DNA from: Candidatus Omnitrophota bacterium | Lineage (GTDB): Bacteria; Omnitrophota; Gorgyraeia; Zapsychrales; Fredricksoniimonadaceae | NCBI GenBank assembly: GCA_030650275.1 | Contig: JAUSEK010000011.1 | Location: 73,890 to 137,889, forward strand | DNA: 64,000 nucleotides | Direction of reading: 5' to 3' | Shown here: in pieces, positions 13,041 through 61,016 of the stretch | Numbering within the stretch: the first letter of the stretch is position 1 | Layout of the letters: each line of letters starts with the position of its first letter | Position numbers and translations under genes: made by a program | The notes under the pieces: model-generated | Told to the model about the DNA's origin: nothing | Databases searched by the model: none | The model's input: only the letters and a program-made list of their open reading frames with translations

Positions 13041-13041
13041 A

Positions 13042-19710: not shown

Positions 19711-19712
19711 AT

Positions 19713-21245: not shown

Positions 21246-21258
21246 GAAAGGGTATTTT

Positions 21259-23387: not shown

Positions 23388-23395
23388 GGATCATT

Positions 23396-27961: not shown

Positions 27962-27969
27962 AACCAGAC

Positions 27970-28635: not shown

Positions 28636-28660
28636 ACCATTTTTAGGAATAGAGAAAATT

Positions 28661-29746
28661 ATGGAACAAGCACAAATGACATTAGAAAACACAAGCCTTC
28701 CTGTTAAAACGATGAAGGCCGCGATCTTAACCGAGTTGAACAAGCCCTTGGTTGTTGCCCAAATAGAGCTTCCTAAAACGCTCGCTTTTGGACAGGTCCT
28801 GGTCCGTGTCCATTACAGCGGGATCTGTGGAGCACAGTTTAATGAAATTCAAGGGGCCAAAGGCCCGGATAAATTTTTGCCGCATCTTTTGGGACATGAA
28901 GGTTCGGCGACCGTCCTGGCCGTTGGAGAGGGCGTTGTGCGCGTTAAACCCGACGACCACGTCGTCATGCATTGGCGTCAAAGTGACGGGATCCAATCCC
29001 CGACGCCGACTTATCATTGGAACGGACAAAAGGTCAATTCCGGCTGGGTGACGACCTTTAATGATCATGCCGTTGTTTCAGAGAACAGGCTGACGGTCAT
29101 ACCGAATGATTTTGACATGAAGATCGCCCCTTTGTTTGGCTGTGCCGTCACAACAGCCATGGGGGTCATTAACAATGATGCCCATGTTAAGATCGGTCAA
29201 TCGGTCGTCGTTTTTGGAGTTGGAGGGGTTGGTTTAAATATTATCCAATCCGCGCAAATGGTTTCAGCTAATCCCATCATCGCCGTTGACCTTTTTGATA
29301 AGAAATTAGACATGGCCAAACGTTTCGGGGCCACCCATGGGTTCAATTCAAAGGACAATAAAGATCATCTGGCCCAGATCCGAAAGATCGTTGGTGAAAA
29401 GGGGGCGGATGTCGTTATTGATACGACGGGCAGCGCGCGGGTGATCGAAACAGCGTATGAACTGACCCATCCGGACGGCAAAACGATCCTGGTCGGCGTT
29501 CCGCGCAAAGGGGACAATATTTCCATCTATTCTTTGCCGCTGCATTTTAAGAAAGTTTTAAAAGGATCGCATGGCGGAAGCGCACAGCCCAATCTGGAGA
29601 TCCCGCGTTATATCGATCTCATGAAAAAGGGCAAGATGACGCTCGAGGGCATCATCACGCATGAGTTTAAGTTGGAACAGATCAACGAAGCGCTGAATAC
29701 CATCCGAAGAGGCGAAACCGGACGCGTTGTCATTGCGATGGATTAA
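28661..29746 (+). CDS. Zinc-dependent alcohol dehydrogenase (MDR superfamily)
   Basis: VHYSGICGAQ...GHEGSATVLAVGEGV and Rossmann VVFGVGGVGLN. Alternative start at 28712 (MKAAIL). Confidence 0.75.
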   Translation: MEQAQMTLENTSLPVKTMKAAILTELNKPLVVAQIELPKTLAFGQVLVRVHYSGICGAQFNEIQGAKGPDKFLPHLLGHEGSATVLAVGEGVVRVKPDDHVVMHWRQSDGIQSPTPTYHWNGQKVNSGWVTTFNDHAVVSENRLTVIPNDFDMKIAPLFGCAVTTAMGVINNDAHVKIGQSVVVFGVGGVGLNIIQSAQMVSANPIIAVDLFDKKLDMAKRFGATHGFNSKDNKDHLAQIRKIVGEKGADVVIDTTGSARVIETAYELTHPDGKTILVGVPRKGDNISIYSLPLHFKKVLKGSHGGSAQPNLEIPRYIDLMKKGKMTLEGIITHEFKLEQINEALNTIRRGETGRVVIAMD

Positions 29747-29764
29747 AGGGAAAAAGATGATCTT

Positions 29765-30316
29765 ATGAATACCCCCGTCAATATAAGGATAGAAGGCGAA
29801 GGGATTTTTTTTGCAAAAGGCCCCATTGTGAGCATCGGGGACAGTGAGATCAATTTTCTCAAAGAAGCAGCGTTACGCAACAGCCGCAAAAGCGCCAGAT
29901 TGTGTATGCATAAAGACATCGCGGATGATGTTCATGAGATGTTCATTTTACATTCAAAAGAGACCTATGTTCGGCCTCACAAGCATCCAGGCAAAGACCT
30001 GTCCTATCATATTATTGAGGGCATTGCCGACATGGTTTTGTTTGACGAGCAAGGGGAAATCACCGATGTCATTCCCATGGGCGAATATGGGACCGGGCGC
30101 AAATTTTATTATCGCCTTAATGAGGCGGCTTACTATGCTCCATTTGTGCGTTCGGATCTTTTATTATTCCATGAGACCATCAAGGGTCCATTTCAGCGCT
30201 CCGGCACCATTTATGCCCCATGGGCCGCTGAGGGAGATGACCCGGCTGAGGTCGATCAATTTCAGCAGGGATTAGCATCAAGGATCAGCAAATTCAGAAA
30301 GCCAGGCATGTCATGA
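29765..30316 (+). CDS. WbuC-family cupin-fold protein
   Basis: ~180 aa cupin with HKH...H pattern (CMHKD...HKHPG...YH). Position and size typical of WbuC in O-antigen loci. Confidence 0.5.
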   Translation: MNTPVNIRIEGEGIFFAKGPIVSIGDSEINFLKEAALRNSRKSARLCMHKDIADDVHEMFILHSKETYVRPHKHPGKDLSYHIIEGIADMVLFDEQGEITDVIPMGEYGTGRKFYYRLNEAAYYAPFVRSDLLLFHETIKGPFQRSGTIYAPWAAEGDDPAEVDQFQQGLASRISKFRKPGMS

Positions 30317-31563
30317 AGAACACGACACAGGCCGTCTACAGAAGAACGGATTGCCGGCTCTGCGGGAAAACCAGCCCGGAGACCGTTTTGTCCCTTGAGC
30401 CGATACCCATTGCCGGTGATTATGTTTCCCGGCAAGAGTTGGACATGGCCCAGGACAGATACACCATGGATCTTGCCTTATGCCGTCACTGTGGGAACGT
30501 ATTCTTGCTGGACGTCGTCGACCCGGAGATTTTATACAAAAATTTTAAATACACCTCATCAAGCTCTCCGGATTTAGGCGGGCATTTTAGAGGATACGCC
30601 GAGTATGTCTTGAAGAATTTTCCCATGCCCCAAGGGGCTTTTATTGTTGATGTCGGCAGCAATGACGGCCTGTTCCTTAGAGAATTTCAAAAGAGGGGAT
30701 TGCGGGTCTTGGGCGTCGATCCGGCGAGGGACATTGCCAGAAAAGCGACGGAATCGGGGATCGAGACCCTGGGCGCGTATTACGATATTGAACTTGCCCG
30801 GCAGACCAGGAATGAACGCGCAGCGGCCAATATCATTACCGCCAACATGGTCATGGCCAACGTCGACAATATGGCCATTTTTATTCAGAGTATCCGTGAA
30901 TTATTGGCCGATGACGGCATTTTTATATTTGAAACGGGTTATCTGCTCAAGTTGGTTGAAAATATGGTTTTTGATAATATTTATCATGAACATTTGTCTT
31001 ATTTTTCAGTTAAAGCGCTGGATCTGTTTTTCAAAAATAATGGGATGGAATTGCTGGACATCAATGTTGTGGCCACTAAGGGCGGGTCCTTGCGCGGCGT
31101 GGTGCAGCTGCAGGGCGGGCCCCGCAAAAGGCTGGCCTCCGTGGATAAAATGATACGGTTGGAAAAAGAGTTCGGCTTGGACCGCCCAGAAATCTTTTCA
31201 AACCTGAAAAGGCGGATCGACGCCGAGAAAGAGAAATTGTTGACCCTGATCGGGGACCTAAAGAGGAACAATAAGAAAATCGCGGGGTATGGGGCGTCCC
31301 ATAGCGTGACGACATTCCTTTATTATTTCGGCCTCGGAGATCAATTGGAATGTTTATTTGATGACAATGCGGCGAAATTCAACACGTTCAGCCCGGGCCA
31401 CCATATTCCCATCCTGTCATCCGAGGAAATTGATCAGCGAAAGTCCGATCATATTATTATCTTGGCCTGGCGTTTTCATGAAATGATCGTCAACAAACAC
31501 CGCTTGTACTTGGAAAAAGGAGGGCATTTTATTGTGCCCTTGCCTCAAATGAGAGTTATATGA
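30313..31563 (+). CDS. Sugar C-methyltransferase-like SAM enzyme with N-terminal zinc ribbon (TylCIII/NDP-hexose C3-methyltransferase-type architecture)
   Basis: N-terminal CxxC...CxxC (CRLCGK...CRHCGN), then class I MTase motif I (VDVGSNDG), then C-terminal domain typical of C-methyltransferase family members. Confidence 0.6.
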   Translation: MKNTTQAVYRRTDCRLCGKTSPETVLSLEPIPIAGDYVSRQELDMAQDRYTMDLALCRHCGNVFLLDVVDPEILYKNFKYTSSSSPDLGGHFRGYAEYVLKNFPMPQGAFIVDVGSNDGLFLREFQKRGLRVLGVDPARDIARKATESGIETLGAYYDIELARQTRNERAAANIITANMVMANVDNMAIFIQSIRELLADDGIFIFETGYLLKLVENMVFDNIYHEHLSYFSVKALDLFFKNNGMELLDINVVATKGGSLRGVVQLQGGPRKRLASVDKMIRLEKEFGLDRPEIFSNLKRRIDAEKEKLLTLIGDLKRNNKKIAGYGASHSVTTFLYYFGLGDQLECLFDDNAAKFNTFSPGHHIPILSSEEIDQRKSDHIIILAWRFHEMIVNKHRLYLEKGGHFIVPLPQMRVI

Positions 31564-32348
31564 AGAAAGAACATGTGCTTGTCATCGGCGGGAGCAAGGG
31601 CATAGGCCGGACGGTCGTGCAAACGATGGCCCAAAGGGGTTATCTGGTGTCTGTGATCAGCAGAAAACAGCCACAAGAAAAGACCGAAAAAGTCCATTAT
31701 TGGGACGCGGACATAACGAAGCCCGGCCGTTTCCTAAAAGTTTTCAATGAGATCATCCGCCGGCAGGGCCAATTGAATCATCTTGTTTTTTGTCAGCAGT
31801 TTAGGGGCGTCGGCGATGATTGGGCCGGGCAGATCGAGACGAGTTTGACCGCGGTCAAGCACGTGATCGAATCAGCCGTCGATCATTTTGAGAATGTCAA
31901 AGGAAGAAACACGATCATTGTGGTCACCTCCATCGCCGGCCGCCTGATCGCGGCCGAGCAGCCCGTGGGATACCACGTGGCCAAAGCGGGCCTGGAGCAA
32001 ATGACGCGTTACTATGCCCTGGCCCTGGGAGCTAAAGGGATCAGGGTCAATGCCATTGCGCCCAACATGGTCCTTAAGGAAGAAAACAAAGATTTTTATC
32101 TTAGAAACAAAAAAATTTACGACCTTTATAGAAAAATATCGCCGTTGGGAAGAATGGTGGCTTCTGATGACGTGGCCCACACGGTAGCGTTTTTCTGTAG
32201 TTCCCAGTCGGCCGGAATCACCGGGCAAATTCTGGTCATTGATGGGGGCGTCTCATTGCAAGAACACGCGGCCCTGGCGCGCGCGTTGATGTCTTTGGAC
32301 GGCACACAGATCACACAAAAGAACCGTCAACAAAAGAAATTTTCTTAG
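31560..32348 (+). CDS. Short-chain dehydrogenase/reductase (classical SDR)
   Basis: VLVIGGSKGIGRTV...YxxxK (YHVAK). Confidence 0.7.
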   Translation: MKKEHVLVIGGSKGIGRTVVQTMAQRGYLVSVISRKQPQEKTEKVHYWDADITKPGRFLKVFNEIIRRQGQLNHLVFCQQFRGVGDDWAGQIETSLTAVKHVIESAVDHFENVKGRNTIIVVTSIAGRLIAAEQPVGYHVAKAGLEQMTRYYALALGAKGIRVNAIAPNMVLKEENKDFYLRNKKIYDLYRKISPLGRMVASDDVAHTVAFFCSSQSAGITGQILVIDGGVSLQEHAALARALMSLDGTQITQKNRQQKKFS

Positions 32349-32358
32349 GAGATCGATC

Positions 32359-33984
32359 ATGAATGTTTTGGGGATCCACTGTGCGTTCTCTCATTTGAAC
32401 CATGATCCAAGCGCGGCCTTGATCTGCGATGGGAAGTTAATAGCCTTGGGTGAAGAAGAGCGCTTTACAAGGATCAAAGGGGCCAGAGGATTACTCCCTT
32501 TTTTCAGCATCCGGTTCTGCCTGAAACAGGCCGGATTAAAGATGGAAGATATTGATCTGGTTGTTTCGACCGGAGAAACGATCAAGGAACAATTGGACAA
32601 TAATGTGAAGTTGTTTTTCAAGCATTATTTCGGAGTGGTCCCGCCCATTCAATACATTAACCATCAGTTCTCTCACCTGGCTTCCGCCTTTTTTTATTCT
32701 GGATTCGATCGGTCCATGTGCATCTCTTATGACGGCCGGGGAGATGATTTGAGCGGAATGCTTGCGGTGGGTTCTTCCAAGGGGATCAAAGTATTGGAAA
32801 AGATGCCGATCAAGGATTCCGTGGGGCTTTTTTATTGCGCCGTAACTCAATTTTTGGGGTTTCGGCAAGCCCAAGATGAATACAAGGTGATGGGGCTGGC
32901 TTCCTTTGGAAAAGAAGGGGAAGATATCAGTTCTCTCGTGAGAATTTCCGATGATGGTTATTCTGTCCGTCAGGAGAATTTTGGCCACCCGTTCCCGATC
33001 AGAACTTTGGACGAGCCGATCTATAATGAAAACCTTATTCGCGCGCTGGGAACCCCCCGCCGTTTCGGTGAGCCCATCACGGACAGGCATAGAAATCTTG
33101 CTTTTGCCGTTCAAAGATCCTTGGAAGAATGCGTCGTGCGCCTTGTTAAACGGCTGCATGCCAAGACAGGATTGGATTCCTTATGCATTGCCGGCGGAGT
33201 TGGATTGAATTGCTCGGCTAACCGGATCATTCATCAATTGCCGTTTATCAAGCGGTTATTCGTGCAGCCGGCCGCTTCGGACAGGGGGTTATGTTTAGGC
33301 AATGCCTTGGTAGGCGCTTATGAAAATGGCGAGAAGATAGAATTGCCGGGACATGTGTTTTTTGGCCCTAGCTATACCAATGGGCAATTGTTAAGCGCCC
33401 TTAAGTTAACGGGGCAGGACTATATTGAGCTTCCGGACCCGGGGACAAAGGCCGCGGAAATGTTGGCTGAAGGTAAGATCATCGGATGGTTTCAGGGCCG
33501 GTCTGAATTTGGTCCGCGGGCGTTGGGTAACCGTTCTATTTTGGCTGATCCCCGCTCGATCAAGATGAAAGATGAGATCAATGCCCGAATTAAGTTTCGC
33601 GAAGAGTTTCGTCCTTTCGCGCCGGCGGTGCTGGAGGAGCGGGCTTCGGAGGTCTTCGAGATGGATCAACCATCCCCCTACATGACGGTTACTTTTACGG
33701 TGCGCCCCCACTGGGTAGAGAAGCTGCAGGCCGTCACCCATGTCGACAAGACGGCCAGGGTACAGACGGTGAGTAAGGAAACGAACCCGTTATTCCACGG
33801 TTTGATCGCGGCTTTTGGCCGCTTGACCGGAGTTCCCGTGGTATTAAATACCAGCTTTAACGCCCGGGGAGAGCCCATTGTGGAGACTCCATTGGATGCC
33901 CTGGCGACTTTTTCATCCGTCGGGATGGATGCTCTTTTTCTGGGGCCATACCTGATCACGAAGCCAAAACCACCCAGGCGGTAG
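32359..33984 (+). CDS. NodU/CmcH-family O-carbamoyltransferase
   Basis: MNVLGIHCAFSHLNHDPSAALICDGKLIALGEEERFTRIKG is the characteristic N-terminus of this family. 541 aa, two-domain length. Confidence 0.8.
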   Translation: MNVLGIHCAFSHLNHDPSAALICDGKLIALGEEERFTRIKGARGLLPFFSIRFCLKQAGLKMEDIDLVVSTGETIKEQLDNNVKLFFKHYFGVVPPIQYINHQFSHLASAFFYSGFDRSMCISYDGRGDDLSGMLAVGSSKGIKVLEKMPIKDSVGLFYCAVTQFLGFRQAQDEYKVMGLASFGKEGEDISSLVRISDDGYSVRQENFGHPFPIRTLDEPIYNENLIRALGTPRRFGEPITDRHRNLAFAVQRSLEECVVRLVKRLHAKTGLDSLCIAGGVGLNCSANRIIHQLPFIKRLFVQPAASDRGLCLGNALVGAYENGEKIELPGHVFFGPSYTNGQLLSALKLTGQDYIELPDPGTKAAEMLAEGKIIGWFQGRSEFGPRALGNRSILADPRSIKMKDEINARIKFREEFRPFAPAVLEERASEVFEMDQPSPYMTVTFTVRPHWVEKLQAVTHVDKTARVQTVSKETNPLFHGLIAAFGRLTGVPVVLNTSFNARGEPIVETPLDALATFSSVGMDALFLGPYLITKPKPPRR

Positions 33985-33991
33985 AAAAAAA

Positions 33992-35209
33992 ATGAAAGAT
34001 ATCGGTCAGGGGCCAATAAGGAAGTTATATCAGTGTCTTTTGGTCCCTCCGGCTGTCCTGATCGCCATAGGTATACGGATATTGCGGCCATTGATCGTTG
34101 TGCGATGGGGAAGGATCGACATCGCAAGGATAGGCGGAATATACCGGGCGGATTGGTACCTGTCTTTGTATCATGGCCGCATGTGCAGGGATAAATACTT
34201 TGATATTTTTTACTTCGATTGGTCCGGGGTCGTCGGCAACAGCCAATGGTGGGCGATGTGGAAGCGAGTTTTGCGTATTTTTCCATTCGGAGGATTGGCA
34301 AAACTCGTCGGGAGGATATCATGCATATTGCCAGGGGATAAGCTTTACATTGTTCCGGTGATGGATGCCACTCCATCAACGATCAGCGAGCATCAAGATA
34401 TTCTTAAGCGCATCCTTGAACATAAAGAACCTAATGTTGCTTTTACTCCGCAAGAAGAGCATTTTGGCCATCAAGAGATTCGGGGGTTAGGCATACCAGA
34501 AAAGGCCCCCTTTGTCTGTTTTCATGCCCGCGACGCGGCATATCTGGACGCCGTATATCCTGATAGAAGTTGGGGTTATCACGATTATAGAGATTCCAAT
34601 ATTTTTAATTATCTTCCTGCGGTCGAAGGACTTGCCCGGCGAGGTTACCATGCGGTTAGAATGGGCAGCACGGTGAAGGACAGGTTGCCCGCGTCGAACG
34701 CGGCCATTATCGATTACGCCGCCAATGGAAGCCGAACAGATTTTTTGGATGTTTATTTAGGAGCTAAGTGTCATTCTTTTTTATGCTCCGATACCGGGAT
34801 GTCTATTATCCCGGAGGCCTTTAAGCGTCCTGTTGTTTACGTGAATTGGGTCCCGATCCAGCGGATATCGATCTGGGTTTCAAACGGGATATTCATCTTC
34901 AAAAAATTCTACTCTGTGAGCAAAAAGCGTTGCTTAACGTTTAGTGAAATAATTCAGTCCGGCCTGGGGAACTGTTGGGATGGCAGAGATTTTGAAAAGA
35001 ATGAAATAGAATTAAGAGAGAATAGCCCGGAAGAGATCATGGCGCCGGTCTTTGAAATGGAGGATCGTCTTAAGGGCAAGTGGAAGGCTGGGCCTGAAGA
35101 CGAAGAGCTGCAGAGGCGTTTTTGGGCATGTTTAGGGTGGGATAATCTAAATCCTAACGTAAGGATCGGGGCCGAATTTTTGCGTCAAAATCAGGATCTC
35201 TTGAACTGA
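33992..35209 (+). CDS. Hypothetical protein, putative glycosyltransferase of the TIGR04372-like family (distant KpsS/KpsC-like); paralog of 39303-40901
   Basis: No classic GT motif I recognise. Shares conserved blocks with the 39303 paralog (VCFHARDAAYLD / VCLHVRESGWND; IDYA; VVYVNWVP / VVMTNCLP). Family assignment is from memory and uncertain. Confidence 0.35.
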   Translation: MKDIGQGPIRKLYQCLLVPPAVLIAIGIRILRPLIVVRWGRIDIARIGGIYRADWYLSLYHGRMCRDKYFDIFYFDWSGVVGNSQWWAMWKRVLRIFPFGGLAKLVGRISCILPGDKLYIVPVMDATPSTISEHQDILKRILEHKEPNVAFTPQEEHFGHQEIRGLGIPEKAPFVCFHARDAAYLDAVYPDRSWGYHDYRDSNIFNYLPAVEGLARRGYHAVRMGSTVKDRLPASNAAIIDYAANGSRTDFLDVYLGAKCHSFLCSDTGMSIIPEAFKRPVVYVNWVPIQRISIWVSNGIFIFKKFYSVSKKRCLTFSEIIQSGLGNCWDGRDFEKNEIELRENSPEEIMAPVFEMEDRLKGKWKAGPEDEELQRRFWACLGWDNLNPNVRIGAEFLRQNQDLLN

Positions 35210-35286
35210 TTTTATTACTTGCCTTACTCGGAAATATGCAATAAACTATAATTTGGTAATCCTTTAATCCTCTCAGGGAGGTCGGT

Positions 35287-37023
35287 ATGAAGATTTTAGT
35301 TGTCGTCCCCAAGTATGAACCAGATATTGAAAAAACAGGAGCGCCGTATTTCTTACCATTAGGGCTCATGTATGTTTCATCCTATTTGAAACAAAAGGGT
35401 TTTGATGTCCAGAATTTGAATCTTAACCATTATACAGATAATAAATTGCGGACGGTCCTTCAAGAGCAACCGTTCGACGCGATTTGTACGGGAGGTTTGT
35501 TTACGGAAATCAAACCTATTATGACCGTGATCCAGACAACGCGTGATGTGCGGCCCCATGCAAAAATAATTCTGGGAGGCGCTTTGGCCAGCGGGGACCC
35601 TGAATTTGCTTTGGAAAAAGTTGGCCCGGATTTTTTGGTATTAGGAGAGGGAGAGGCAACGTTGGCGCATCTTCTGGGTACCCTTAGAGATGGTTTGGAT
35701 TTAAAAGAGGTTAAGGGGATCGCCTATTTGAAAGATGGCACTATGTTCAAAACGTGCGGCCGGGAACTGATCTCGGATCTGGATAGTCACCCCTGGCCTG
35801 ATTATGAAGGTTTTGAATACAGGCATCACCTTGATCATCATTATGAAAAGGATTCATGTTTTGAAACGGTGATGGATCCTGCAAAACGGCGTATCGCCAA
35901 CATCATTACGAGTAGAAATTGTGTGGCCAAATGCACTTTTTGCTATCGGTTGATGACGGGCGGCCATCGGGTTCGCACCATTGAGAACGTTATGAAAGAA
36001 GTCAAGTTTTTGATGGATGAATACGGTGTTAATGAAATCAATTTGATCGACGAGATGTTTGCCAATGACAAACAACGTATTTACGATTTTTGTGAAGGGA
36101 TCAAACCGCTCAATGTCCGTTGGCAATGCCAGTTGAGATGCGGCGTTATTGATGAAAATGTGTTAGCGGCAATGAAAGACGCCGGTTGTCGTTATATCAG
36201 TTATGGATTTGAAAGCGCCAGTAAAGAGGTTTTAAAAAGTATGAAAAAAGGGCTTCACCCGACACAAATTGACAATGTTATCCGTTGGACATTAAAAGCA
36301 GGCATCACGATCCAAGGGAATTACATATTCGGGGACCCGGCCGAGACTTTAGGGACGATGGAAGAGACCCTTCGTTTCAGGCGGAGATTCCCGGCGCTTA
36401 ATTTGGGGATGTTTATGATCATCCCCTATCCCGGGACAGTCCTTTACCACGATTTAAAGGCAAAGGGAAGGTTTGAAAACCTGTATGATTTTTACATTAA
36501 CCCAAGTTCGGTGTTTCAGGGCAGACCCTTGAATATGACTAAATTGTCCGAAGACGATTTTGATTATATGTGTAAGAAGGTTTGGCATGAGGGAATTGTC
36601 TCGGTTGCTTATACAAAGATCCTCGGATCCAAACATCTTGATAAAATGACTTCATTGGTCAGTTATAAATGTCCCCATTGCTTAGAAATGCATAAAGACA
36701 TACCGATAACATTTTCTGGCAATGATGCGGAAACCCGTTTCTGTAAAAAATGTCTTCAGAGAGTGCATATAAAGAAATCATCCGTGTATTTTGATCTATA
36801 TGCCAAACTTCGCGAGTTTTATCACTACGCCATAGTCACCCCGGTCCTTATTCATCCAAAAGTTTATAAGACATGTAATCCTTTAATCAATCTTTTTAAA
36901 GGAACCGGAAAGATCGGGAAATTGATCAAACTATGCTTAAAGACAAGCAGACCTAAGGTGGTCCCTAAATTTCAAACTACGGCTTTAGAATTGCAAGGAG
37001 AGCTGGTGGCGTCTAAGGCATGA
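35287..37023 (+). CDS. B12-binding-domain radical SAM enzyme (class B radical SAM, methyltransferase-like) with C-terminal Cys4 ribbon
   Basis: N-terminal B12-binding Rossmann (KILVVVPKY...ICTGGLF). CxxxCxxC (SRNCVAKCTFC). C-terminal CPHC...CKKC. Confidence 0.8.
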   Translation: MKILVVVPKYEPDIEKTGAPYFLPLGLMYVSSYLKQKGFDVQNLNLNHYTDNKLRTVLQEQPFDAICTGGLFTEIKPIMTVIQTTRDVRPHAKIILGGALASGDPEFALEKVGPDFLVLGEGEATLAHLLGTLRDGLDLKEVKGIAYLKDGTMFKTCGRELISDLDSHPWPDYEGFEYRHHLDHHYEKDSCFETVMDPAKRRIANIITSRNCVAKCTFCYRLMTGGHRVRTIENVMKEVKFLMDEYGVNEINLIDEMFANDKQRIYDFCEGIKPLNVRWQCQLRCGVIDENVLAAMKDAGCRYISYGFESASKEVLKSMKKGLHPTQIDNVIRWTLKAGITIQGNYIFGDPAETLGTMEETLRFRRRFPALNLGMFMIIPYPGTVLYHDLKAKGRFENLYDFYINPSSVFQGRPLNMTKLSEDDFDYMCKKVWHEGIVSVAYTKILGSKHLDKMTSLVSYKCPHCLEMHKDIPITFSGNDAETRFCKKCLQRVHIKKSSVYFDLYAKLREFYHYAIVTPVLIHPKVYKTCNPLINLFKGTGKIGKLIKLCLKTSRPKVVPKFQTTALELQGELVASKA

Positions 37024-37254
37024 TCCTGATGTGATTCCTTTTGGCGCCAAACGGACTTGACCCCACCCCACCAATTAAAGCCATTTGCATGTAGAGTTTC
37101 CTAATAAGGGTAAACTAACCCAACAAGGAGGCTTTGCATGGCAACGCTACACCCCCGAAAACAGATCATTGAAGTCTTAAAAGAGGCCGAAACCGGGGCC
37201 AAAACTGCGGAGATTTTCCGCAAACACGGCGTTTCATATGAATACTCAATCTGA
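37021..37254 (+). mobile_element. IS3-family insertion-sequence relic: putative left end (TGATCC...) plus truncated orfA (38 codons, 37138-37254)
   Basis: ORF MATLHPRKQIIEVLKEAETGAKTAEIFRKHGVSYEYSI* matches the N-terminal HTH of IS3/IS911 OrfA (..EQIIRILQEAEAG..ELCRKHGIS..) and is preceded by the RBS CAAGGAGG. The rest of the element is absent. The next gene starts inside it in another frame. Confidence 0.5.
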
Positions 37255-38407
37255 GAAACCTTACGTTGATTTTTATAAGAAATACAAAATTTCGCCTGTT
37301 GCGCAGGATATTTCTGATGTAAGGAAACATTTTGAAAGAAGAGAGTTTTTATACAGACGTTTGGGTATTGTGGGTTCGTTCATTAAGGATCGATCGATCA
37401 TAGAATTTGGGCCAGGCAGCGGTCACAACGCCCTTTATACATATAGCTTACAGCCTTCGCAATACGTCCTTGTTGACGGAAATCCGAAAGGTTTAAAAGA
37501 TTGTGAGGACCTTTTCGGGAAGTATTTTCCGGACCAGAAATACCATGAACTGGTGGCGAGCTTAATTGAAGAATATAAAAATGACCAATTATTTGATCTG
37601 GTATTATGCGAAGGATTATTGGCGGGCCAAAAAGATCCACAGCAAAGTTTAAGGTCCGTTGCCAAGTTCACCAAACCCGGGGGAGTTTGCATCATTACGA
37701 CCCATGATTGTGTCGGCTTTCTCACAGACCTGCTGCGCGGTTTGATCGGCGGGATCGTTATGAAAGAAGAGATGTCTTTTGAGGAAAAGGCCGGGATATT
37801 ATCGGCGACTTTTGAAGGACACTTTGCCCATTTGAAGGGAATGAGCCGGTCATCCAAAGATTGGGTGGTGGACAGCATTATGAATAAAGCACTTTGGGGG
37901 AATAAAGAAACGGACATGCTCTCCATAGAACGTGCGATCAGGACGCTGGACGCCTCATTTGATGTGTACGGGGTATCTCCCTATTTTTTTGTTGACTGGC
38001 GCTGGTATAAAGATGTTTATGGGGAAAAAAGGGATCTTAATAAAGTGGCCATCGATTGTTATCGCAAGAACCTGCACAATTTACTGGATTGCCGCGACCA
38101 GTGGGGGCCGCGGCCTGCCGAAGAGAACACGGATCTTTTAAATGTCTGTCTGGAAATACGGCGTTTGATCGCATGTTTTGCCCATGAAAAAAACAGATCG
38201 CATATTGAGGGCATTTCTCAAAATGTCCATGCGCTGGAGGCGATGGTCAGGAGGTTTTCCAAGGTCACGGCGGACGCCTTGTCTGATTTTAATTCCGCGC
38301 TCAAAAAGTATCCTTCCATAACCCCGAAAACCGATTGGAAAAGTTTTTCTTCCTGGTGGGGGAGAGGATCGCAATATTTGAGTTTTATCCGTAATAAAAA
38401 CGAATAG
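37238..38407 (+). CDS. Class I SAM-dependent methyltransferase
   Basis: Motif I IIEFGPGSGHN. Confidence 0.65.
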   Translation: MNTQSEKPYVDFYKKYKISPVAQDISDVRKHFERREFLYRRLGIVGSFIKDRSIIEFGPGSGHNALYTYSLQPSQYVLVDGNPKGLKDCEDLFGKYFPDQKYHELVASLIEEYKNDQLFDLVLCEGLLAGQKDPQQSLRSVAKFTKPGGVCIITTHDCVGFLTDLLRGLIGGIVMKEEMSFEEKAGILSATFEGHFAHLKGMSRSSKDWVVDSIMNKALWGNKETDMLSIERAIRTLDASFDVYGVSPYFFVDWRWYKDVYGEKRDLNKVAIDCYRKNLHNLLDCRDQWGPRPAEENTDLLNVCLEIRRLIACFAHEKNRSHIEGISQNVHALEAMVRRFSKVTADALSDFNSALKKYPSITPKTDWKSFSSWWGRGSQYLSFIRNKNE

Positions 38408-38409
38408 AT

Positions 38410-39309
38410 ATGGTCCCCAAAACAGCCATCATCGGAGCATCAGGATTTATCGGAAAGGCCCTTTTATCTCTCCATCGCGAGACGCATCCGGACTGTGTCG
38501 GAACGGCTTTGAACCGATTGAAGGGAGATTTGAAACATCTGGACCTGCTTTCCTGCGACATTGCTTCCTTAAAACTTGCTGAGTCCGGGCATCAGGATGC
38601 GATCATTACGGCAGGGATAGCACGGATCCATGTCCCCCAGAAAGAAAAAGAATATACAAAAAAAGTCACCCAAGGGACGTTAAAGATCATTCAACAGCTT
38701 GTGGATGAAGGGATCAAGCCCATATACATTTCCAGTGAATGTGTTTTTGATGGACGCACGGGAAACTACGACGATGACGCGCCGGTGAACCCGATCAACG
38801 GATATGGACAACAGAAGGCGGAAATAGAACAAGGCATCCGGGAAATTTCTAAAGGCAGGTATCTGATCGCCCGGTTCAGCAAGGTTTTTACCATTGAAAA
38901 GAAAGATGGATCTATTTTTGATGAAATGGCGGCCGCGTTGACATCAGGCGGCACAATACGCGCGGCATACGATCAAATTTTTTCACCGACGCTTTTGTCT
39001 GATGCCATCAACGCCCTGAAAATATTACAAACGAAGAACGCGACAGGGATTTTTAACATCAGCACGACCGAAGTGTGGTCACGGTATGATCTAGCTTTAA
39101 TAATGGCCGATCATTTAGGGGTCGGCCATGAAAAAGTTGAGAAAATATCCCTGGATGATCTTAAGGAGGTCATCAATAATGAAGTTTTTAATCGTCCCAA
39201 GAATACGAGTATGAATGTCATGAAATTGATCAGGGAAACAAAGAGCACGTTTACGCCGATCTCCCAATGCATGGAGATCATAGCGAAAAATTGGACAACC
39301 CCATGTTGA
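38410..39309 (+). CDS. RmlD-like NAD(P)-dependent 4-ketoreductase (dTDP-4-dehydrorhamnose reductase family)
   Basis: IIGASGFIGKAL...SSECVFDG...NPINGYGQQK (YxxxK) pattern. Confidence 0.65.
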   Translation: MVPKTAIIGASGFIGKALLSLHRETHPDCVGTALNRLKGDLKHLDLLSCDIASLKLAESGHQDAIITAGIARIHVPQKEKEYTKKVTQGTLKIIQQLVDEGIKPIYISSECVFDGRTGNYDDDAPVNPINGYGQQKAEIEQGIREISKGRYLIARFSKVFTIEKKDGSIFDEMAAALTSGGTIRAAYDQIFSPTLLSDAINALKILQTKNATGIFNISTTEVWSRYDLALIMADHLGVGHEKVEKISLDDLKEVINNEVFNRPKNTSMNVMKLIRETKSTFTPISQCMEIIAKNWTTPC

Positions 39310-40901
39310 TCTCTTTCCTTCGGCGTCAGATGCTCCACATGAAAGAGGGGGGCATGCGCGTTTTTGGTCAAAAGGTAAGAAATTTATTTAAGTTCTTATA
39401 TATGAGCCTCTTGGCCCCGGCGGCTGTTTGCCTAAAAATTGATTGGCCTGAGGCCTATTATTTTGTTTTGCTTCGTATGTATAAGCAACATAAAGACATT
39501 TGTTTAAATCCTGCCTGTGACAGCAATTTAAGCAAGCGTATTAAATTAAAAAGAAAGATCGTTTATTGTATTAAAAAATACATCGCGCATGAACCGAGTT
39601 TGACTGATCTTTCCGTTTTTATATCAGCGAGCACCCTCCTGATCAATTTTTGTTATACCGGTCAAGAATTCGTAAGATCCATGGGTATTTTACGGAATAC
39701 TGAAAAAATGAGACGCCGGATATTGAAAGATCACCAATTGGATGAGCTTGGTTTTGAATTTATTCCCAGGGCTTTTGCCACAGGGAGCATCGGCGCCTGG
39801 GAGATCCTCGGGGTCCATATAAAAATGGGGATCCTTGGATTGAAGACCCCTAAAAAATTGGTGTTATTGCTTGATCCTGAAAGTCGTGTTAATAATCCCT
39901 GTTATTTAAAATACTGGCGCCAGTATATCACTGTTATCTCTGATCCATTATTGATTCAGGCGCTTTCTCCTTTGGAAAAATGCATGACCGTTCCGATCAA
40001 TTATTATATGTCGTTCCAAGGAAGGGTCATGTTGAGCCCGCAAGCCCTTGGATTCGTGCGAAAACAATGGAATGAAGAAAAGCGTCCGGCTCTTCTCAAG
40101 CTTTCCGATGATGATTTTGTGAAAGGATGGAAGCGCTTAAGCTCTTTAGGCGTCCCGAACCACGCATGGTTTGTCTGTCTTCATGTGAGAGAATCAGGAT
40201 GGAATGACAATAGCCACGCGGGGAACTTTCGCAATGCGGATATTAAGACCTATGTGCCGGCCATAAAGGCCATTGTTGATGCCGGGGGGTGGGTGGTCCG
40301 TATGGGAGACCTCGGAATGACCCCATTGCCGCCGATGGACCATGTGATCGATTATGCCCATAGTGATGCGAAAAGCGATTGGATGGACATTTTCTTGTGT
40401 TCGCAATGCCGTTTCCTTGTAGGAACATCTTCGGGAGTGCATACAATATCTTTAGTTTTCGGCGTACCTGTTGTCATGACAAACTGTTTGCCGGCCGCGG
40501 CGATGTACCAGTTCACTGTGAATGACCTGTTTATCCCAAGGCTTTGTCTGTCTAAAGATGACGATCATTATCTAAGTTTCCGTGAATTGATGTGTCCTCC
40601 TGTCAGCATGGGTGCCGAGCAGTATGTTTATGACAGGCTTAATCTTAAAGTCATGGAAAATACACCGGAAGAGATCAAGGATATCGTGATGGAAATGTTG
40701 ATGAGGGAAAGCGGCACTATTCAATATAGTCAAGAAGATGGATCTCTGCAGGAGCAGTTCAGGTCTTTGTCAGCCCGTTGCGGTGCATTATACGGAGATG
40801 ACGATATTGTTGTCCATGCCAGGATGGGGCGGGATTTTTTGCGAAAATATGCCGGGCTTTTACCCGTTGGTATGATGGAAGAATGCCGGAATAAAGGATA
40901 A
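39303..40901 (+). CDS. Hypothetical protein, second TIGR04372-like putative glycosyltransferase with N-terminal extension
   Basis: Paralogous blocks with the 33992 protein (see there). Start is uncertain (39267/39303). Confidence 0.35.
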   Translation: MLISFLRRQMLHMKEGGMRVFGQKVRNLFKFLYMSLLAPAAVCLKIDWPEAYYFVLLRMYKQHKDICLNPACDSNLSKRIKLKRKIVYCIKKYIAHEPSLTDLSVFISASTLLINFCYTGQEFVRSMGILRNTEKMRRRILKDHQLDELGFEFIPRAFATGSIGAWEILGVHIKMGILGLKTPKKLVLLLDPESRVNNPCYLKYWRQYITVISDPLLIQALSPLEKCMTVPINYYMSFQGRVMLSPQALGFVRKQWNEEKRPALLKLSDDDFVKGWKRLSSLGVPNHAWFVCLHVRESGWNDNSHAGNFRNADIKTYVPAIKAIVDAGGWVVRMGDLGMTPLPPMDHVIDYAHSDAKSDWMDIFLCSQCRFLVGTSSGVHTISLVFGVPVVMTNCLPAAAMYQFTVNDLFIPRLCLSKDDDHYLSFRELMCPPVSMGAEQYVYDRLNLKVMENTPEEIKDIVMEMLMRESGTIQYSQEDGSLQEQFRSLSARCGALYGDDDIVVHARMGRDFLRKYAGLLPVGMMEECRNKG

Positions 40902-42727: not shown

Positions 42728-43504
42728 ATGAAAAAAAACATATTAAAAACGAAATTGGCCAAACATCAACAAACTCTTGGGTGTTGGGTCACGCTGGCGC
42801 ATCCCTTGATCCCTGATATCCTGGCGCCGGCAGGTTTTGACTGGCTTGCGGTGGACATGGAGCATAGTTCCATCGGCCTGGGAGAGCTTTTGCCCCTTAT
42901 CATTTCCATTGAACATAGCGGGATGGTGCCCTTGGTGCGTGTAGGAGAGAACGATCCTAATCTTATTAAGCGTGTCATGGATGCGGGGGCTTACGGCGTG
43001 ATCGTCCCTAATGTGAATACGGCCCGTGAAGCACAGGCGGCGGTGAACGCGGTGAAATATCCTCCGCAGGGGACTCGCGGAGTAGGGCTTTATCGGGCCC
43101 AAGGGTATGGCCGGCAATTTGAGGCCTATAAGAAGTGGGTGGCCCAAGAGAGCGTGGTCATTATCCAAATTGAACATATTGATGCGGTCAATCATATTGA
43201 GGCCATTTTTTCTGTTGGGGGCATTGATGCGTTTCTCGTCGGTCCCTATGATCTTTCCGGGTCCATGGGCATGCCCGGGGCATTGACCCATCCTAAGGTT
43301 GAGGCCGCGATCAAAAAGGTTTTGGCGGCGGCGAAGAAATATAAGATCCCTGCCGGGTACCATTCCGTTTCAGCGGACCCAAAGATGGTCCTTAAACGCG
43401 CGAAGCAGGGATTTAAGTTTTTGGGTTTCAGCCTGGACTCCATATTTCTTGGCACGGCGGCGGCCGATGCCATGGCTGTCGTCAAGAAAGGCATGAGAAA
43501 GTGA
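42728..43504 (+). CDS. HpcH/HpaI-family class II pyruvate aldolase
   Basis: VRVGENDPNLIKRVMDAGAYGVIVPNV...YPPQGTRG pattern of HpcH/HpaI/KDR aldolases. Poly-A8 at codons 2-4. Confidence 0.75.
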   Translation: MKKNILKTKLAKHQQTLGCWVTLAHPLIPDILAPAGFDWLAVDMEHSSIGLGELLPLIISIEHSGMVPLVRVGENDPNLIKRVMDAGAYGVIVPNVNTAREAQAAVNAVKYPPQGTRGVGLYRAQGYGRQFEAYKKWVAQESVVIIQIEHIDAVNHIEAIFSVGGIDAFLVGPYDLSGSMGMPGALTHPKVEAAIKKVLAAAKKYKIPAGYHSVSADPKMVLKRAKQGFKFLGFSLDSIFLGTAAADAMAVVKKGMRK

Positions 43505-44412
43505 AGATCACCATCAACACTTCTTCTTTCGCGCAGGGTGATATTCAGCCGCTGGAAAGATTGCGCGCCAAGGGCATTGTGCCTGTTATGAATCCGCATA
43601 AGAAAACGATGACCGCCAAGCAGGTCATTGAGTTTTGCGCGGATGCCGATGGGATGATCGCGGGGACAGAGCCGTTGACCACGGAAGTTCTGGCGCAATT
43701 ACCATTGTTGAAGGTCATTTCCCGTTGCGGGACAGGGCTGGATCATATTGATCTGAAGGCGGCCCAGGCCCGGGGGATTAAGATTTTTAATACTCCTACA
43801 GCTGTGATACAGCCGGTTGCGGAACTGGCTGTAGGCCTGATGCTTTCTCTTTTGCGTCAGACCAATGCCATGGACCGCAACCTTCATGCCGGTATGTGGG
43901 ACAAGAAGATGGGGCATCTGCTGAATGGTAAGACGGTGGGGATCGTGGGGTTCGGGCGTATCGGGCAGAAGATCGCGGAGCTTCTGTTACCATTCGGCGT
44001 AGAAATTCTTTATACAGATCTCCGGGAAATAAAAATTTCTTTGAAGAGCATGCGGGTCAATTTAGATGAGCTTCTGAAACGTTCGGACATTGTCAGCCTG
44101 CATCTTTCCATGGAAGAGGGGAGATCTGTCATGAACGCGCCTCAGTTTTCTCTAATGAAAAAAGGCGCGTGGTTCTTGAATCTTTCCCGCGGAGAGGCCG
44201 TTGATGAGAACGCGCTTTATACTGTTTTAGAAAATGGGCATTTGGCAGGCGCGGCCCTGGATGTTTTTGGTCAAGAGCCCTATCAAGGGCCTCTTCAAAC
44301 ATTGGACAATGTTATTTTAACCCCGCATATCGGTTCCTATGCGCAGGAGGCGCGCGTTCTCATGGAGCAAGAGGCGGTTGAGAATCTTTTAAAAGGGCTG
44401 AATATCATTTGA
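43501..44412 (+). CDS. D-isomer-specific 2-hydroxyacid dehydrogenase (phosphoglycerate dehydrogenase-like)
   Basis: NAD-binding GKTVGIVGFGRIGQKIAELL and catalytic region typical of the D-2-HDH family. GTG start overlaps the upstream stop. Confidence 0.8.
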   Translation: MKITINTSSFAQGDIQPLERLRAKGIVPVMNPHKKTMTAKQVIEFCADADGMIAGTEPLTTEVLAQLPLLKVISRCGTGLDHIDLKAAQARGIKIFNTPTAVIQPVAELAVGLMLSLLRQTNAMDRNLHAGMWDKKMGHLLNGKTVGIVGFGRIGQKIAELLLPFGVEILYTDLREIKISLKSMRVNLDELLKRSDIVSLHLSMEEGRSVMNAPQFSLMKKGAWFLNLSRGEAVDENALYTVLENGHLAGAALDVFGQEPYQGPLQTLDNVILTPHIGSYAQEARVLMEQEAVENLLKGLNII

Positions 44413-44422
44413 GGGGAATCAT

Positions 44423-45301
44423 ATGAAAGCGATTGTTTTTGGAGGCGCAGGATTCTTGGGAAGTCATGTGGCGGACGCGTTGACGGATGCCGGATACGCG
44501 GTCACTATTTTTGACCGTAATCATTCGCCGTATGCGCGTTCTGATCAGAAAATGGTCGTTGGTGACATCCTGGACCGCCAGGCCGTGAATGACGTGGTCC
44601 GCGGCGCGGATGTTGTTTATAATTTTGCCGGGATCGCGGAGATCGATGAGGCGGCCCAGCATCCTTTTGACGCCGTGCAGGACAATATTGTTGGGAATAC
44701 AACAGTGCTTGAGGCCTGTCACGGAGCAAAGGTCAAACGTTTTGTTTTCGCGAGTTCTCTTTACGTGTACGGCAAAAGCGGTTCTTTTTACCGCAGCACC
44801 AAACTTGCCTGTGAACTTCTGATCGAGAATTATCATGAGGTCTACGGGCTTTCGTATACGATCTTGCGCTATGGTTCGTTGTACGGCCCGCGTGCGGGGG
44901 ACACGAACGCGATCCACCGTTTTGTCAAACAGGCGCTGACAGAGGGGAAGATCGTCCGTCATGGCGATGGCGATGAGTTGCGCGAATATATCCATGTTTT
45001 AGATGCCGCAAAGGGGAGTGTGGCCATTTTGGCGGATGAATTCAAGGACCAGAATGTGATCTTGACCGGCCAGCAGCAGATGCGGATGCGCGATTTTCTC
45101 ACGATGATCCGTGAGATCATGGACAATAAAGTGGCGGTTGAATATGTTCCGGCCACAGAGTCCTATCATTATGAAATTACGCCATATACCTTCATGCCCA
45201 AGATGGGCAAACGCCTTGTGCAACCTACGTATTTTGATCTCGGACAGGGGATTTTGGATGTTATTCACAGCATGTCCAGGGAGTTGAATTCACCTGTTTA
45301 A
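44423..45301 (+). CDS. NAD-dependent nucleotide-sugar epimerase/dehydratase
   Basis: MKAIVFGGAGFLGSHVADAL...YxxxK. Confidence 0.7.
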   Translation: MKAIVFGGAGFLGSHVADALTDAGYAVTIFDRNHSPYARSDQKMVVGDILDRQAVNDVVRGADVVYNFAGIAEIDEAAQHPFDAVQDNIVGNTTVLEACHGAKVKRFVFASSLYVYGKSGSFYRSTKLACELLIENYHEVYGLSYTILRYGSLYGPRAGDTNAIHRFVKQALTEGKIVRHGDGDELREYIHVLDAAKGSVAILADEFKDQNVILTGQQQMRMRDFLTMIREIMDNKVAVEYVPATESYHYEITPYTFMPKMGKRLVQPTYFDLGQGILDVIHSMSRELNSPV

Positions 45302-45323
45302 GTAGATGTTGAAAGGTTTAAGG

Positions 45324-45980
45324 ATGATCAAGGCCTTGATTTTTGATTTTGACGGGGTAATTCTTGAATCGGTGGATGTGAAGGGCTGGGCATTCCAAAA
45401 GATCTTTGAGGGCTATCCCCAGCGGCAAGAGCAGATCTTAGCCTACCATTATGAGCATGGGGGATTACCACGGGCGAATAAGATCCGGCATATTTTGAAG
45501 GAAATTTTAAAACTTTCTTATGATGACGCGATCGTCGCGCAATATTGCGAACGTTTTGGAGAGCTTGTTTTTAAAAGGGTCGTTGATTCACCCTTTGTCC
45601 CCGGCGCCCGCGAGGCATTGGAGGCCTTTCAAGGGCGCTTTTTGACCTTTGTTGTCTCCGGAACACCTCATGAAGAGATGAACCGCGTTGTGGATGCCAG
45701 GGGTTTGCGTTCCTGTTTTTCCGCTGTTTATGGTTCGCCGGTGATGAAGGATGAACGGACAGGAATGATCTTGGCCGAACACGGCCTTGCCCCGCGGGAG
45801 GTCCTTTGGATCGGCGATGCGACAAGCGACCTGCGGGCCGCGGCAAAATACGGGATCCGTTTTGTCCTGCGTTCCTGGCCGGGCAATGAAGGGATATTTC
45901 GTCATGCCAGGGCCGATTTCAGGATGAATGATCTCACAGGCCTGCCGTCTTTGATCCAACAATTGCAGGAGAAAAAATAG
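45324..45980 (+). CDS. HAD-superfamily hydrolase (beta-phosphoglucomutase/phosphatase subfamily)
   Basis: Motif I LIFDFDGVIL. Later GDATSD motif. Confidence 0.7.
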   Translation: MIKALIFDFDGVILESVDVKGWAFQKIFEGYPQRQEQILAYHYEHGGLPRANKIRHILKEILKLSYDDAIVAQYCERFGELVFKRVVDSPFVPGAREALEAFQGRFLTFVVSGTPHEEMNRVVDARGLRSCFSAVYGSPVMKDERTGMILAEHGLAPREVLWIGDATSDLRAAAKYGIRFVLRSWPGNEGIFRHARADFRMNDLTGLPSLIQQLQEKK

Positions 45981-61013: not shown

Positions 61014-61016
61014 ATT

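Follow-up and report, generated by a model that had tools for sequence, protein, structure and literature searches.

What do two related proteins of an uncharacterised family contribute to a large glycan-biosynthesis cluster, and why does the gene of one of them adjoin a cobalamin-dependent radical S-adenosylmethionine (SAM) enzyme? This question was raised by a 64-kb stretch of DNA (the window) from a Candidatus Omnitrophota metagenome-assembled genome, which forms one glycan-biosynthesis supercluster on the + strand and encodes a 405-aa (amino acid) and a 544-aa protein, here named the short and the long paralogue. A previous sequence-only reading had described the pair as paralogous putative transferases resembling the TIGR04372 family. 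We found that both are members of this family with a predicted GT-B fold, and that the most constant neighbour of the family is an ATP-binding cassette (ABC) exporter. In the reading that we favour, to which we give about an even chance, the paralogues would be membrane-associated glycosyltransferases (GTs) adding tailored sugars made by the cluster to a lipid-linked acceptor, with the adjacent exporter flipping the product.

Both paralogues are TIGR04372 members with a predicted GT-B fold

The kinship of the two proteins was confirmed by BLASTP (28% identity over 270 aa, E 5e-32) and by profile-profile comparison of their homologue alignments (probability 100%, E 1.3e-57), and a coding motif common to both was the sole find of a repeat search. 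The suspected likeness to TIGR04372 held in hidden Markov model searches: against a curated cut-off of 45 bits and a model of 207 positions, the short paralogue scored 225.7 bits (E 3.9e-67; aa 172-380, model positions 1-206) and the long paralogue 230.6 bits (E 1.3e-68; aa 300-501), while no third member was found in the 64-kb window. NCBI names both identical proteins as TIGR04372 family, and the record identical to the 405-aa protein, on a 149-kb contig, is already called a TIGR04372 family glycosyltransferase. By these sequence criteria, both genes belong, as ordinary members, to a family that is named but uncharacterised and counts about 8,042 clusters at 50% identity. A Pfam scan returned no family match for either paralogue at E <= 0.01, and sequence and profile searches against PDB sequences returned no match.

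The long paralogue represents a subfamily with an added N-terminal helical bundle. Residues N83, R180, R200, G218, R223, G225, D241, D253, G269, I349, E355 and L373 are invariant in both subfamilies, and N83, R180, R200, R223, D241, D253 and E355 were taken as support for a GT (this set was described as holding four arginines, but three are listed). An FHARD motif that may resemble motif I (HxRRxD) of fucosyltransferases and GT61 was given no weight. In the short subfamily, the hydrophobicity of a 19-residue N-terminal window reaches at least 1.6 in 58 of 62 homologues, which suggests a membrane anchor. The NCBI start of the long paralogue (a 515-aa product, about 39354 by our arithmetic) looks too far downstream: residues upstream of it (SF..RQ..Q..EGG) are conserved in homologues, and a 79%-identical homologue begins at Met13 of the window's open reading frame (ORF), the ATG at 39303. 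The stop codon of the preceding RmlD-like reductase gene overlaps this probable start (ATGTTGA, 39303-39309), suggesting translational coupling.

AlphaFold2 models, built from 60-62 homologues, had a predicted local distance difference test score (pLDDT) of 92.1 and a predicted template modelling score (pTM) of 0.91 for the short paralogue, and 91.8 and 0.89 for the long one. Both are predicted to adopt a two-Rossmann GT-B architecture, to which the long paralogue adds five long N-terminal helices, in line with the earlier view of a transferase-type protein. Foldseek searches of the PDB returned GT9 heptosyltransferases first for both models (probability 1.00, E 1e-4 to 1e-5), with the GT9 entries 3tov, 1psw (WaaF) and TibC at the top for the short paralogue and TibC, 3tov, WaaF and WaaC for the long one; all significant matches of both models were GT-B proteins. 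The kinship with the KpsS/KpsC transferases that the sequence-only reading had suggested found no support, as neither paralogue matched PF05159 at E <= 0.01 and KpsC/KpsS were not in the top 50 Foldseek matches of either model. In a weak profile-profile alignment, the SDTGMS motif in the C-domain of the short paralogue pairs with the invariant D261-T-G of E. coli WaaC; in the same weak GT9 alignments, the long paralogue has TSSG at that place, WaaC K192 falls near the H178-x-R180 strand, and no equivalent of D13 was established. On the predicted models, TIGR04372 is a GT-B family of its own, closest among solved structures to the GT9 enzymes, and not a member of GT9.

TagF, uridine diphosphate N-acetylglucosamine (UDP-GlcNAc) 2-epimerases, POMGNT2 and FUT8 appeared at lower ranks, which raises the alternative that the paralogues are not GTs but GT-B-fold TagF-type phosphotransferases or nucleotide-sugar 2-epimerase-like enzymes. 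TagF and the 2-epimerases match with probabilities of 0.7-0.9, and zinc-dependent dehydrogenases and cytidylyltransferase-like domains in the family loci resemble those of cytidine diphosphate-alditol synthesis (TarI/TarJ). We find this alternative hardly credible, given that these matches rank below GT9 for both paralogues, that the loci already encode NeuC-type epimerases, and that the weak alignment points to a DTG motif like that of GT9 and not to the histidines of TagF.

An ABC exporter is the most constant neighbour of the family

The gene surroundings of the family were surveyed in 80 loci from different species plus locus L001, giving 81 loci with 97 family genes, whose ORFs were clustered without reference to the window and named by Pfam and NCBIfam; loci with at least 8 kb on both sides are called well-flanked (n=34). 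The family is found in Omnitrophota, Planctomycetota, Bacteroidota, Chloroflexota, Acidobacteriota, Nitrospirota and Patescibacteria, and further in SAR11, Chlorobiaceae, Gallionellaceae, Leptospiraceae, Myxococcota and a Methanoregula. A recurring order was observed, beginning with HldE-like and GmhA-like genes, a SPASM radical SAM, a split transketolase, a 221-aa methyltransferase and a zinc-dependent alcohol dehydrogenase (Zn-ADH), followed by (C-methyltransferase, WbuC, C-methyltransferase), a 389-aa methyltransferase, and HldE-like and RmlA-like genes, then one to three TIGR04372 genes, the ABC exporter, and finally NeuB, NeuC-like, DegT, PseB-like and cytidine monophosphate (CMP)-sugar synthetase genes.

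The gene immediately after a family member encodes an ABC exporter in 23 of the 97 cases, where chance would give roughly 2 (our estimate, not a computed value), and 30 of 34 exporter copies lie downstream of a family gene. Immediately before it stand an RmlA-like nucleotidyltransferase (14 cases), another family member (10), a B12-binding radical SAM (8, from two clusters of 5 and 3) or an RmlD-like reductase (5). In the well-flanked loci, thiamine-dependent enzymes occur in 24, the 221-aa methyltransferase in 21, any radical SAM in 21, a SPASM radical SAM in 18, HldE-like genes in 15, and a C-methyltransferase or WbuC also in 15; the exporter is present in 19. Of all neighbours, the PglK/MsbA-like ABC exporter recurs most constantly, in most cases directly after the family gene, as in the window, where the best NCBIfam matches of the exporter were PglK (333 bits, cut-off 1000), HepA (311 bits) and MsbA (279 bits), with the equivalog cut-offs of PglK and MsbA not reached. 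As judged from sequence, its identity is established to the level of the ABC exporter superfamily only.

Patescibacteria, Dehalococcoidia and the archaeon are not known to have lipopolysaccharide, and the presence of the family in such lineages speaks against lipid A as a general acceptor. The conserved fused exporter favours an intermediate that is carried on a lipid and flipped. A sister genome (86% identity) has two YfhO-type GT-C genes directly after the exporter gene. The window holds a second export/ligation system (58747-62288) with a Wzy_C/O-antigen-ligase-like protein and Wzm/Wzt, the Wzt carrying a C-terminal carbohydrate-binding domain. We infer that the YfhO-type genes of the sister genome and the ligase-like and Wzm/Wzt genes of the window fit an extracytoplasmic transfer of the flipped unit.

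The same neighbourhood bears on whether the paralogues glycosylate proteins instead, in the manner of the GT9 autotransporter heptosyltransferase TibC or of O-GlcNAc transferases bearing tetratricopeptide repeats (TPRs). TibC is the top structural match of the long paralogue, whose N-terminal helical bundle could suit such a role, and relatives exist that are fused to long TPR arrays. However, the strongest conserved neighbour is an exporter of the lipid-glycan type, the short form carries a hydrophobic anchor, no conserved candidate target protein was seen nearby in the family loci, and the models reach only low TM-scores (template modelling scores) against TibC (0.28-0.32 by query length, 0.36-0.40 by target length), and we regard protein glycosylation as very unlikely. 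The TPR-bearing relatives (P0237-P0240, P0288, P0322) lie outside the window and are giant proteins of cyanobacterial type, one with Microcoleus as named source; read by eye, they appear to pair TPR arrays and DUF4214-like repeats with one or two family domains of the long type.

The radical SAM enzyme is a recurrent but loose partner

The enzyme encoded directly after the short paralogue is a class-B radical SAM, as had been proposed, with B12-binding (PF02310, 61.4 bits) and radical SAM (PF04055, 61.6 bits) domains above their cut-offs. Its translation contains the CxxxCxxC motif as C-VAK-C-TF-C and a C-terminal CxxC...CxxC pair. No characterised NCBIfam subfamily was reached (the best, HpnJ, gave 168 bits against a cut-off of 578, and other top matches, PhpK and BchE, were far under theirs), and its closest PDB sequence relatives are AprD4 (6fd2, E 4.6e-16), CysS and OxsB. 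The C-terminal tail of about 150 aa (36577-37023), which holds the zinc-ribbon-like CxxC...CxxC pair and a basic hydrophobic end, has no family match.

The sequence-only reading had left the pairing with the short paralogue unexplained, and it is now explained in part: the association of TIGR04372 with B12 radical SAMs is real but loose, made up of recurrent, non-orthologous enzymes at varying positions. Under a stricter view, the two enzymes would be an obligate unit: the radical SAM might be confined to the product bound to the transferase, or the two might work as a complex. In its favour, the genes are adjacent in the window, in the sister genome and in L001, there are 12 immediate adjacencies to a B12 radical SAM among the 97 family genes, 14 of the 34 well-flanked loci contain such an enzyme, and one natural fusion protein exists (P0296, EKD26225.1, from a bacterium of the candidate phyla radiation (CPR)), joining a B12 radical SAM to a short-type TIGR04372 domain. 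Yet the neighbouring radical SAMs are only 21-44% identical to that of the window, fall into two clusters and differ in position: the enzyme at the same place in L001 is 24% identical and belongs to the other cluster, whereas the closest relative (44%, in L005) lies five genes away. About 60-65% of family loci have no B12 radical SAM within 10 kb, none of 26 metagenome loci seeded with relatives of the window enzyme (27-36% identity) carries a TIGR04372 member, and in P0393 the fusion partner of a B12 radical SAM is an unrelated GT2. An obligate unit therefore appears quite improbable.

Other natural fusions join a TIGR04372 domain to an RmlD-like reductase (P0341) and apparently to a GT2 (P0308, read by eye and not scanned), while a search for further radical SAM-TIGR04372 fusions found none. 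The fusion of a B12 radical SAM to a TIGR04372 domain argues that the radical SAM works in the same pathway, and the fusions together show partners that share a pathway without forming an obligate pair. The two paralogues are direct neighbours in L005 and L007, with the ABC exporter after them, so that the radical SAM, methyltransferase and reductase of the window look like inserted tailoring cassettes.

Gene order in the window and its relatives

The features of the window are collected in Table 1. Between the paralogues, the sequence-only reading had noted an insertion sequence (IS) relic, which is real; it had left unmentioned two intact genes in the same interval, a methyltransferase and a reductase. 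An interval filled by three intact genes would seem to leave no room for a relic, yet the 214 bp that separate the radical SAM gene from the methyltransferase gene encode MATLHPRKQIIEVLKEAETGAKTAEIFRKHGVSYEYSI*. This fragment matches HTH_Tnp_1 (PF01527) with E 2.8e-4 and 21.5 bits, just under the gathering score of 24.1 bits, and shows 64-76% tblastn identity to annotated IS3-family transposases. Neither OrfB nor inverted repeats were found around it, only 38 codons of OrfA being left. The sister genome keeps the gene order but has a gap of 25 bp without the relic, which makes the fragment a lineage-specific insertion scar; it is a relic rather than an element, private to this lineage and presumably without a role. 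At the same joint in L001 (13551-13706), a 51-aa ORF between the radical SAM and RmlD-like genes is a relic of a short-paralogue C-terminus (…EDEKLQQDFWAFFGP…RIGAEFLRQN…), which points to repeated cassette shuffling there. The whole block from the carbamoyltransferase through both paralogues to the ABC gene is conserved in the sister genome, and the core from the short paralogue to the ABC gene recurs in a relative of 50% identity.

Table 1. Features of the 64-kb window discussed in the text.
Feature	Position	Strand	Basis or remark
PF02348 cytidylyltransferase	12294-13040		
PseI equivalog	16468-17502		485 bits, above cut-off
Sugar-building/tailoring module upstream of the short paralogue	18086-33984	+	Pfam and NCBIfam scans
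WbuC cupin	from 29765	+	
Sugar C-methyltransferase	from 30313	+	
Short-chain dehydrogenase/reductase (SDR)	from 31560	+	
NodU-like carbamoyltransferase	from 32359	+	
Short TIGR04372 paralogue, 405 aa	33992-35209	+	N-terminal hydrophobic helix, then predicted GT-B fold
Cobalamin-binding (class B) radical SAM, 578 aa	35287-37023	+	PF02310 and PF04055
IS3-family OrfA N-terminus relic, 38 codons	37138-37251	+	HTH_Tnp_1 match, tblastn identity
Class I SAM-dependent methyltransferase, 389 aa	37238-38407	+	Methyltransf_31/23/11 matches; long C-terminal extension
RmlD-like 4-keto-sugar reductase (nucleoside diphosphate sugars), 299 aa	38410-39309	+	PF04321, E 8.3e-26
Long TIGR04372 paralogue, 544-aa ORF	39267-40901	+	Probable start ATG 39303; N-terminal five-helix bundle, then predicted GT-B fold
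Fused half-transporter ABC exporter, PglK/HepA/MsbA type, 598 aa	40920-42716	+	PF00664 and PF00005
PF02348 cytidylyltransferase	45980-46759		Above KdsB cut-offs
PF02348 cytidylyltransferase	62255-62980		

The module upstream of the short paralogue is collinear with the other family loci (81 loci) and with the sister genome. It encodes in order a GmhA-like isomerase, epimerases, an HldE-like kinase/nucleotidyltransferase, two DegT aminotransferases and a split transketolase, then the 221-aa methyltransferase, the Zn-ADH, WbuC, the sugar C-methyltransferase, the SDR and the carbamoyltransferase. The GmhA-like isomerase and the HldE-like bifunctional enzyme (18086-21245) both fall under their equivalog cut-offs, and the latter, whose gene recurs in 25 family loci, has its domain order reversed, with the nucleotidyltransferase first and the PfkB kinase second. 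The split transketolase, the 221-aa methyltransferase (up to 82% identity across phyla) and the zinc-dependent dehydrogenase form a tight conserved sub-module (26184-29746) found in at least 20 related loci; other loci have thiamine enzymes like pyruvate dehydrogenase E1 (PDH-E1) or acetolactate synthase in its stead. The sub-module suggests the formation of two-carbon branched sugars. Homologues of the RmlD-like reductase (TIGR01214, 93 bits, under cut-off) occur in 17 family loci, and those of the 389-aa methyltransferase in 15 of 81, mostly upstream of the TIGR04372 gene.

The left edge of the cluster carries genes for a MetH-like protein with B12-binding and reactivation domains (540-2057), for a B12/siderophore-type periplasmic-binding protein (2064-2972) and for a SPASM radical SAM (3924-5018), which may relate to the cobalamin supply for radical SAM chemistry. 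A promoter scan gave no excess of promoters, and terminator-like sites numbered 17 against 10.8 in shuffles (standard deviation 3.0), a modest excess from which we conclude nothing.

The donor sugar

The paralogues had been proposed as prime candidates for the missing ulosonic-acid transferases, in view of three CMP-ulosonate synthetase-like enzymes in the window. These enzymes are indeed present, as three PF02348 cytidylyltransferases, one of them a KdsB equivalog, and PseI is encoded as well. Nonulosonic-acid genes co-occur with the family in 17 of the 34 well-flanked loci, so that the proposed association with such genes, like that with B12 radical SAMs, was borne out by the survey, and the lack of association that would have refuted the earlier reading was not seen. 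In L112, a radical SAM-TIGR04372 fusion directly precedes a legionaminic-type module. The candidacy itself fared less well. Neither paralogue matches PF05159, GT52 or GT80-type families, the nearest folds are adenosine diphosphate (ADP)-heptose enzymes, and the sole Kdo (3-deoxy-D-manno-oct-2-ulosonic acid) transferase among the structural matches has a probability of 0.38. Homologues of the window's CMP-ulosonate synthetases occur in only 1-4 of 80 family loci, a separate PF02348 cluster being found in 14 of 79, and the sister genome does not keep the KdsB module beside the cassette.

The CMP-sugar modules of the window, moreover, contain orphan proteins of their own. A 691-aa protein (13606-15681) without Pfam, NCBIfam or PDB sequence match lies between a GNAT acetyltransferase and PseI in a pseudaminic-acid-type module, and its homologue in L007 (57%, 18338-20404) travels with a Pse-like module. 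A 591-aa protein (50096-51871), about 3.3 kb downstream of the KdsB gene, has no PDB sequence relatives and matches TIGR04326, the surface-carbohydrate family of Leptospira LIC13510, weakly (46 bits against a cut-off of 250). Both are at least as good candidates for ulosonate transferases as the paralogues. The KdsB gene closes a module (42728-46759) of an HpcH/HpaI class II aldolase, a D-2-hydroxyacid dehydrogenase, an epimerase and a haloacid dehalogenase (HAD) phosphatase, which could be an aldolase-based route to a 3-deoxy-2-ulosonic acid; in the sister genome (L110), the two YfhO genes stand in its place.

The fusion with an RmlD-like reductase, and the stop codon of the window's reductase gene overlapping the probable start of the long paralogue, argue for a nucleoside diphosphate (NDP)-deoxysugar donor. 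On the same side stand the GT9 folds, the nucleotidyltransferases immediately upstream and the orphan in each CMP-sugar module. To the general model, in which an NDP donor is favoured, we give even odds, whereas it seems rather unlikely that the paralogues are the cluster's transferases for CMP-activated pseudaminic, legionaminic or Kdo-like acids.

Several findings weigh against the NDP-donor, lipid-linked reading that we favour. A nonulosonic-acid pathway lies just downstream in half of the well-flanked loci, typically 3-6 genes after the family gene. In L111, a 608-aa MptE/Maf-like PF01973 protein (11667-13493) occupies the usual TIGR04372 position before NeuB/NeuC, behind an upstream module as in family loci (transketolase, 221-aa methyltransferase, RmlD-like, DUF6016 and B12 radical SAM); this may be a non-orthologous displacement, and a CMP-nonulosonate donor would account for it just as well. 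Searches of the family loci and of the window turned up no Maf-like homologue. The TM-scores to GT9 are modest (0.28-0.44 by query length, 0.36-0.50 by target length), and hhalign comparisons with E. coli WaaC/F/Q/U were not significant (probability 16% and 7%). About 45% of the loci have no ABC exporter within 10 kb, the radical SAM and ABC counts come from the family loci alone, and every fusion is a single sequence on a single contig. The family also has no studied member: 'TIGR04372' occurred in none of the searchable papers, and nothing relevant was found on radical SAM with O-antigen, transketolase with nonulosonic acid, or LA1599; a preprint on Omnitrophota added nothing to this. Orphans of 580 aa and 317 aa in L111 and L112 were considered as further family members and ruled out.

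Proposed mechanism and its meaning

Taking these observations together, we propose that both paralogues are GT-B-fold glycosyltransferases of TIGR04372, of which the short one probably sits at the cytoplasmic face of the membrane through its N-terminal hydrophobic helix, and that they would act sequentially, adding unusual sugars to a lipid-linked acceptor of the polyprenyl-phosphate type. The donors would come from the upstream module, presumably co-transcribed, by nucleotide-sugar formation, thiamine-dependent branching, C- and O-methylation, amination, carbamoylation and 4-keto reduction, and the product would be flipped across the membrane by the PglK/MsbA-like exporter encoded immediately downstream. 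The B12 radical SAM would belong to a set of interchangeable tailoring enzymes, with no fixed tie to the transferase, and would most likely C-methylate an unactivated carbon of the sugar, acting on the nucleotide sugar or else on the product once linked to the lipid.

A wider proposal, which we put forward tentatively and consider somewhat doubtful, is that TIGR04372 is a new GT family at the level of CAZy and that, paired with an MsbA/PglK-type exporter dedicated to it, it makes up the assembly core of a surface-glycan pathway, widespread yet undescribed, from CPR and SAR11 to Omnitrophota and a methanogen. The sugars installed by this pathway would be hyper-modified, with thiamine-dependent branches, C-methyl groups and radical-SAM alkylation, and perhaps linked to nonulosonic acids; its cobalamin radical SAMs would work on the lipid-linked sugar while physically associated with the transferase, as the fusion suggests.

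For the window itself, the result is a refined annotation and not a discovery, nor does it reveal a new kind of system. For the family, which spans many uncultured and ecologically dominant lineages and for which we found no Pfam model, solved structure or paper, what is new is the predicted GT9-like fold, the conserved exporter partner, the recurring tailoring module and the Rosetta-stone fusions. With a membrane anchor and donors from that module, these make a testable working model, and the family marks where unusual branched or C-methylated sugars from cobalamin radical SAM chemistry may be sought.

Comparison with known systems

The GT9 enzymes (WaaC, WaaF, TibC, 3tov) are the closest in structure: they give the best matches to the predicted two-Rossmann GT-B models, a weak alignment puts the DTG-type motif of the short paralogue at the same place of the C-domain, and the resemblance extends to the GmhA-like and HldE-like enzymes of the window and to a transferase gene beside an MsbA-type exporter, as for WaaC/WaaF with MsbA. 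They differ in that the paralogues have no Glyco_transf_9 (PF01075) match and low profile probabilities and TM-scores, that the family occurs in organisms taken to lack lipopolysaccharide, and that the HldE-like enzyme is swapped in domain order and under its cut-off.

KpsC/KpsS and WbbB (GT107 and GT99; PF05159) share with the paralogues a GT-B-derived fold (predicted for the paralogues), a proposed cytoplasmic action and coupling to ABC export and, in the window, the presence of CMP-ulosonate synthetases. Here the differences are the missing PF05159 match, the single appearance of WbbB alone in the top 50 structural matches (rank 43), an exporter of the fused MsbA type and not KpsMT, and an alignment in which no HP motif was seen on reading by eye.

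For the radical SAM, the comparison is with GenK, GenD1, Fom3 and AprD4-related enzymes, which likewise combine B12-binding and radical SAM domains in a sugar-pathway context, AprD4 being the closest PDB sequence. The window enzyme differs by reaching no equivalog cut-off and by its extra Cys-rich C-terminal tail.

As a pathway, the nearest likeness is to PglK of Campylobacter and Wzk of Helicobacter, where a glycan is assembled in the cytoplasm on undecaprenyl-diphosphate and then flipped by a fused ABC exporter. The window's transferases come from a different family, its exporter stays well below the PglK cut-off, and no oligosaccharyltransferase gene lies next to that exporter, an O-antigen-ligase-like gene being found 16 kb away. 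What the systems have in common is a transferase followed in gene order by a fused ABC exporter, for which PglK is the best NCBIfam match.

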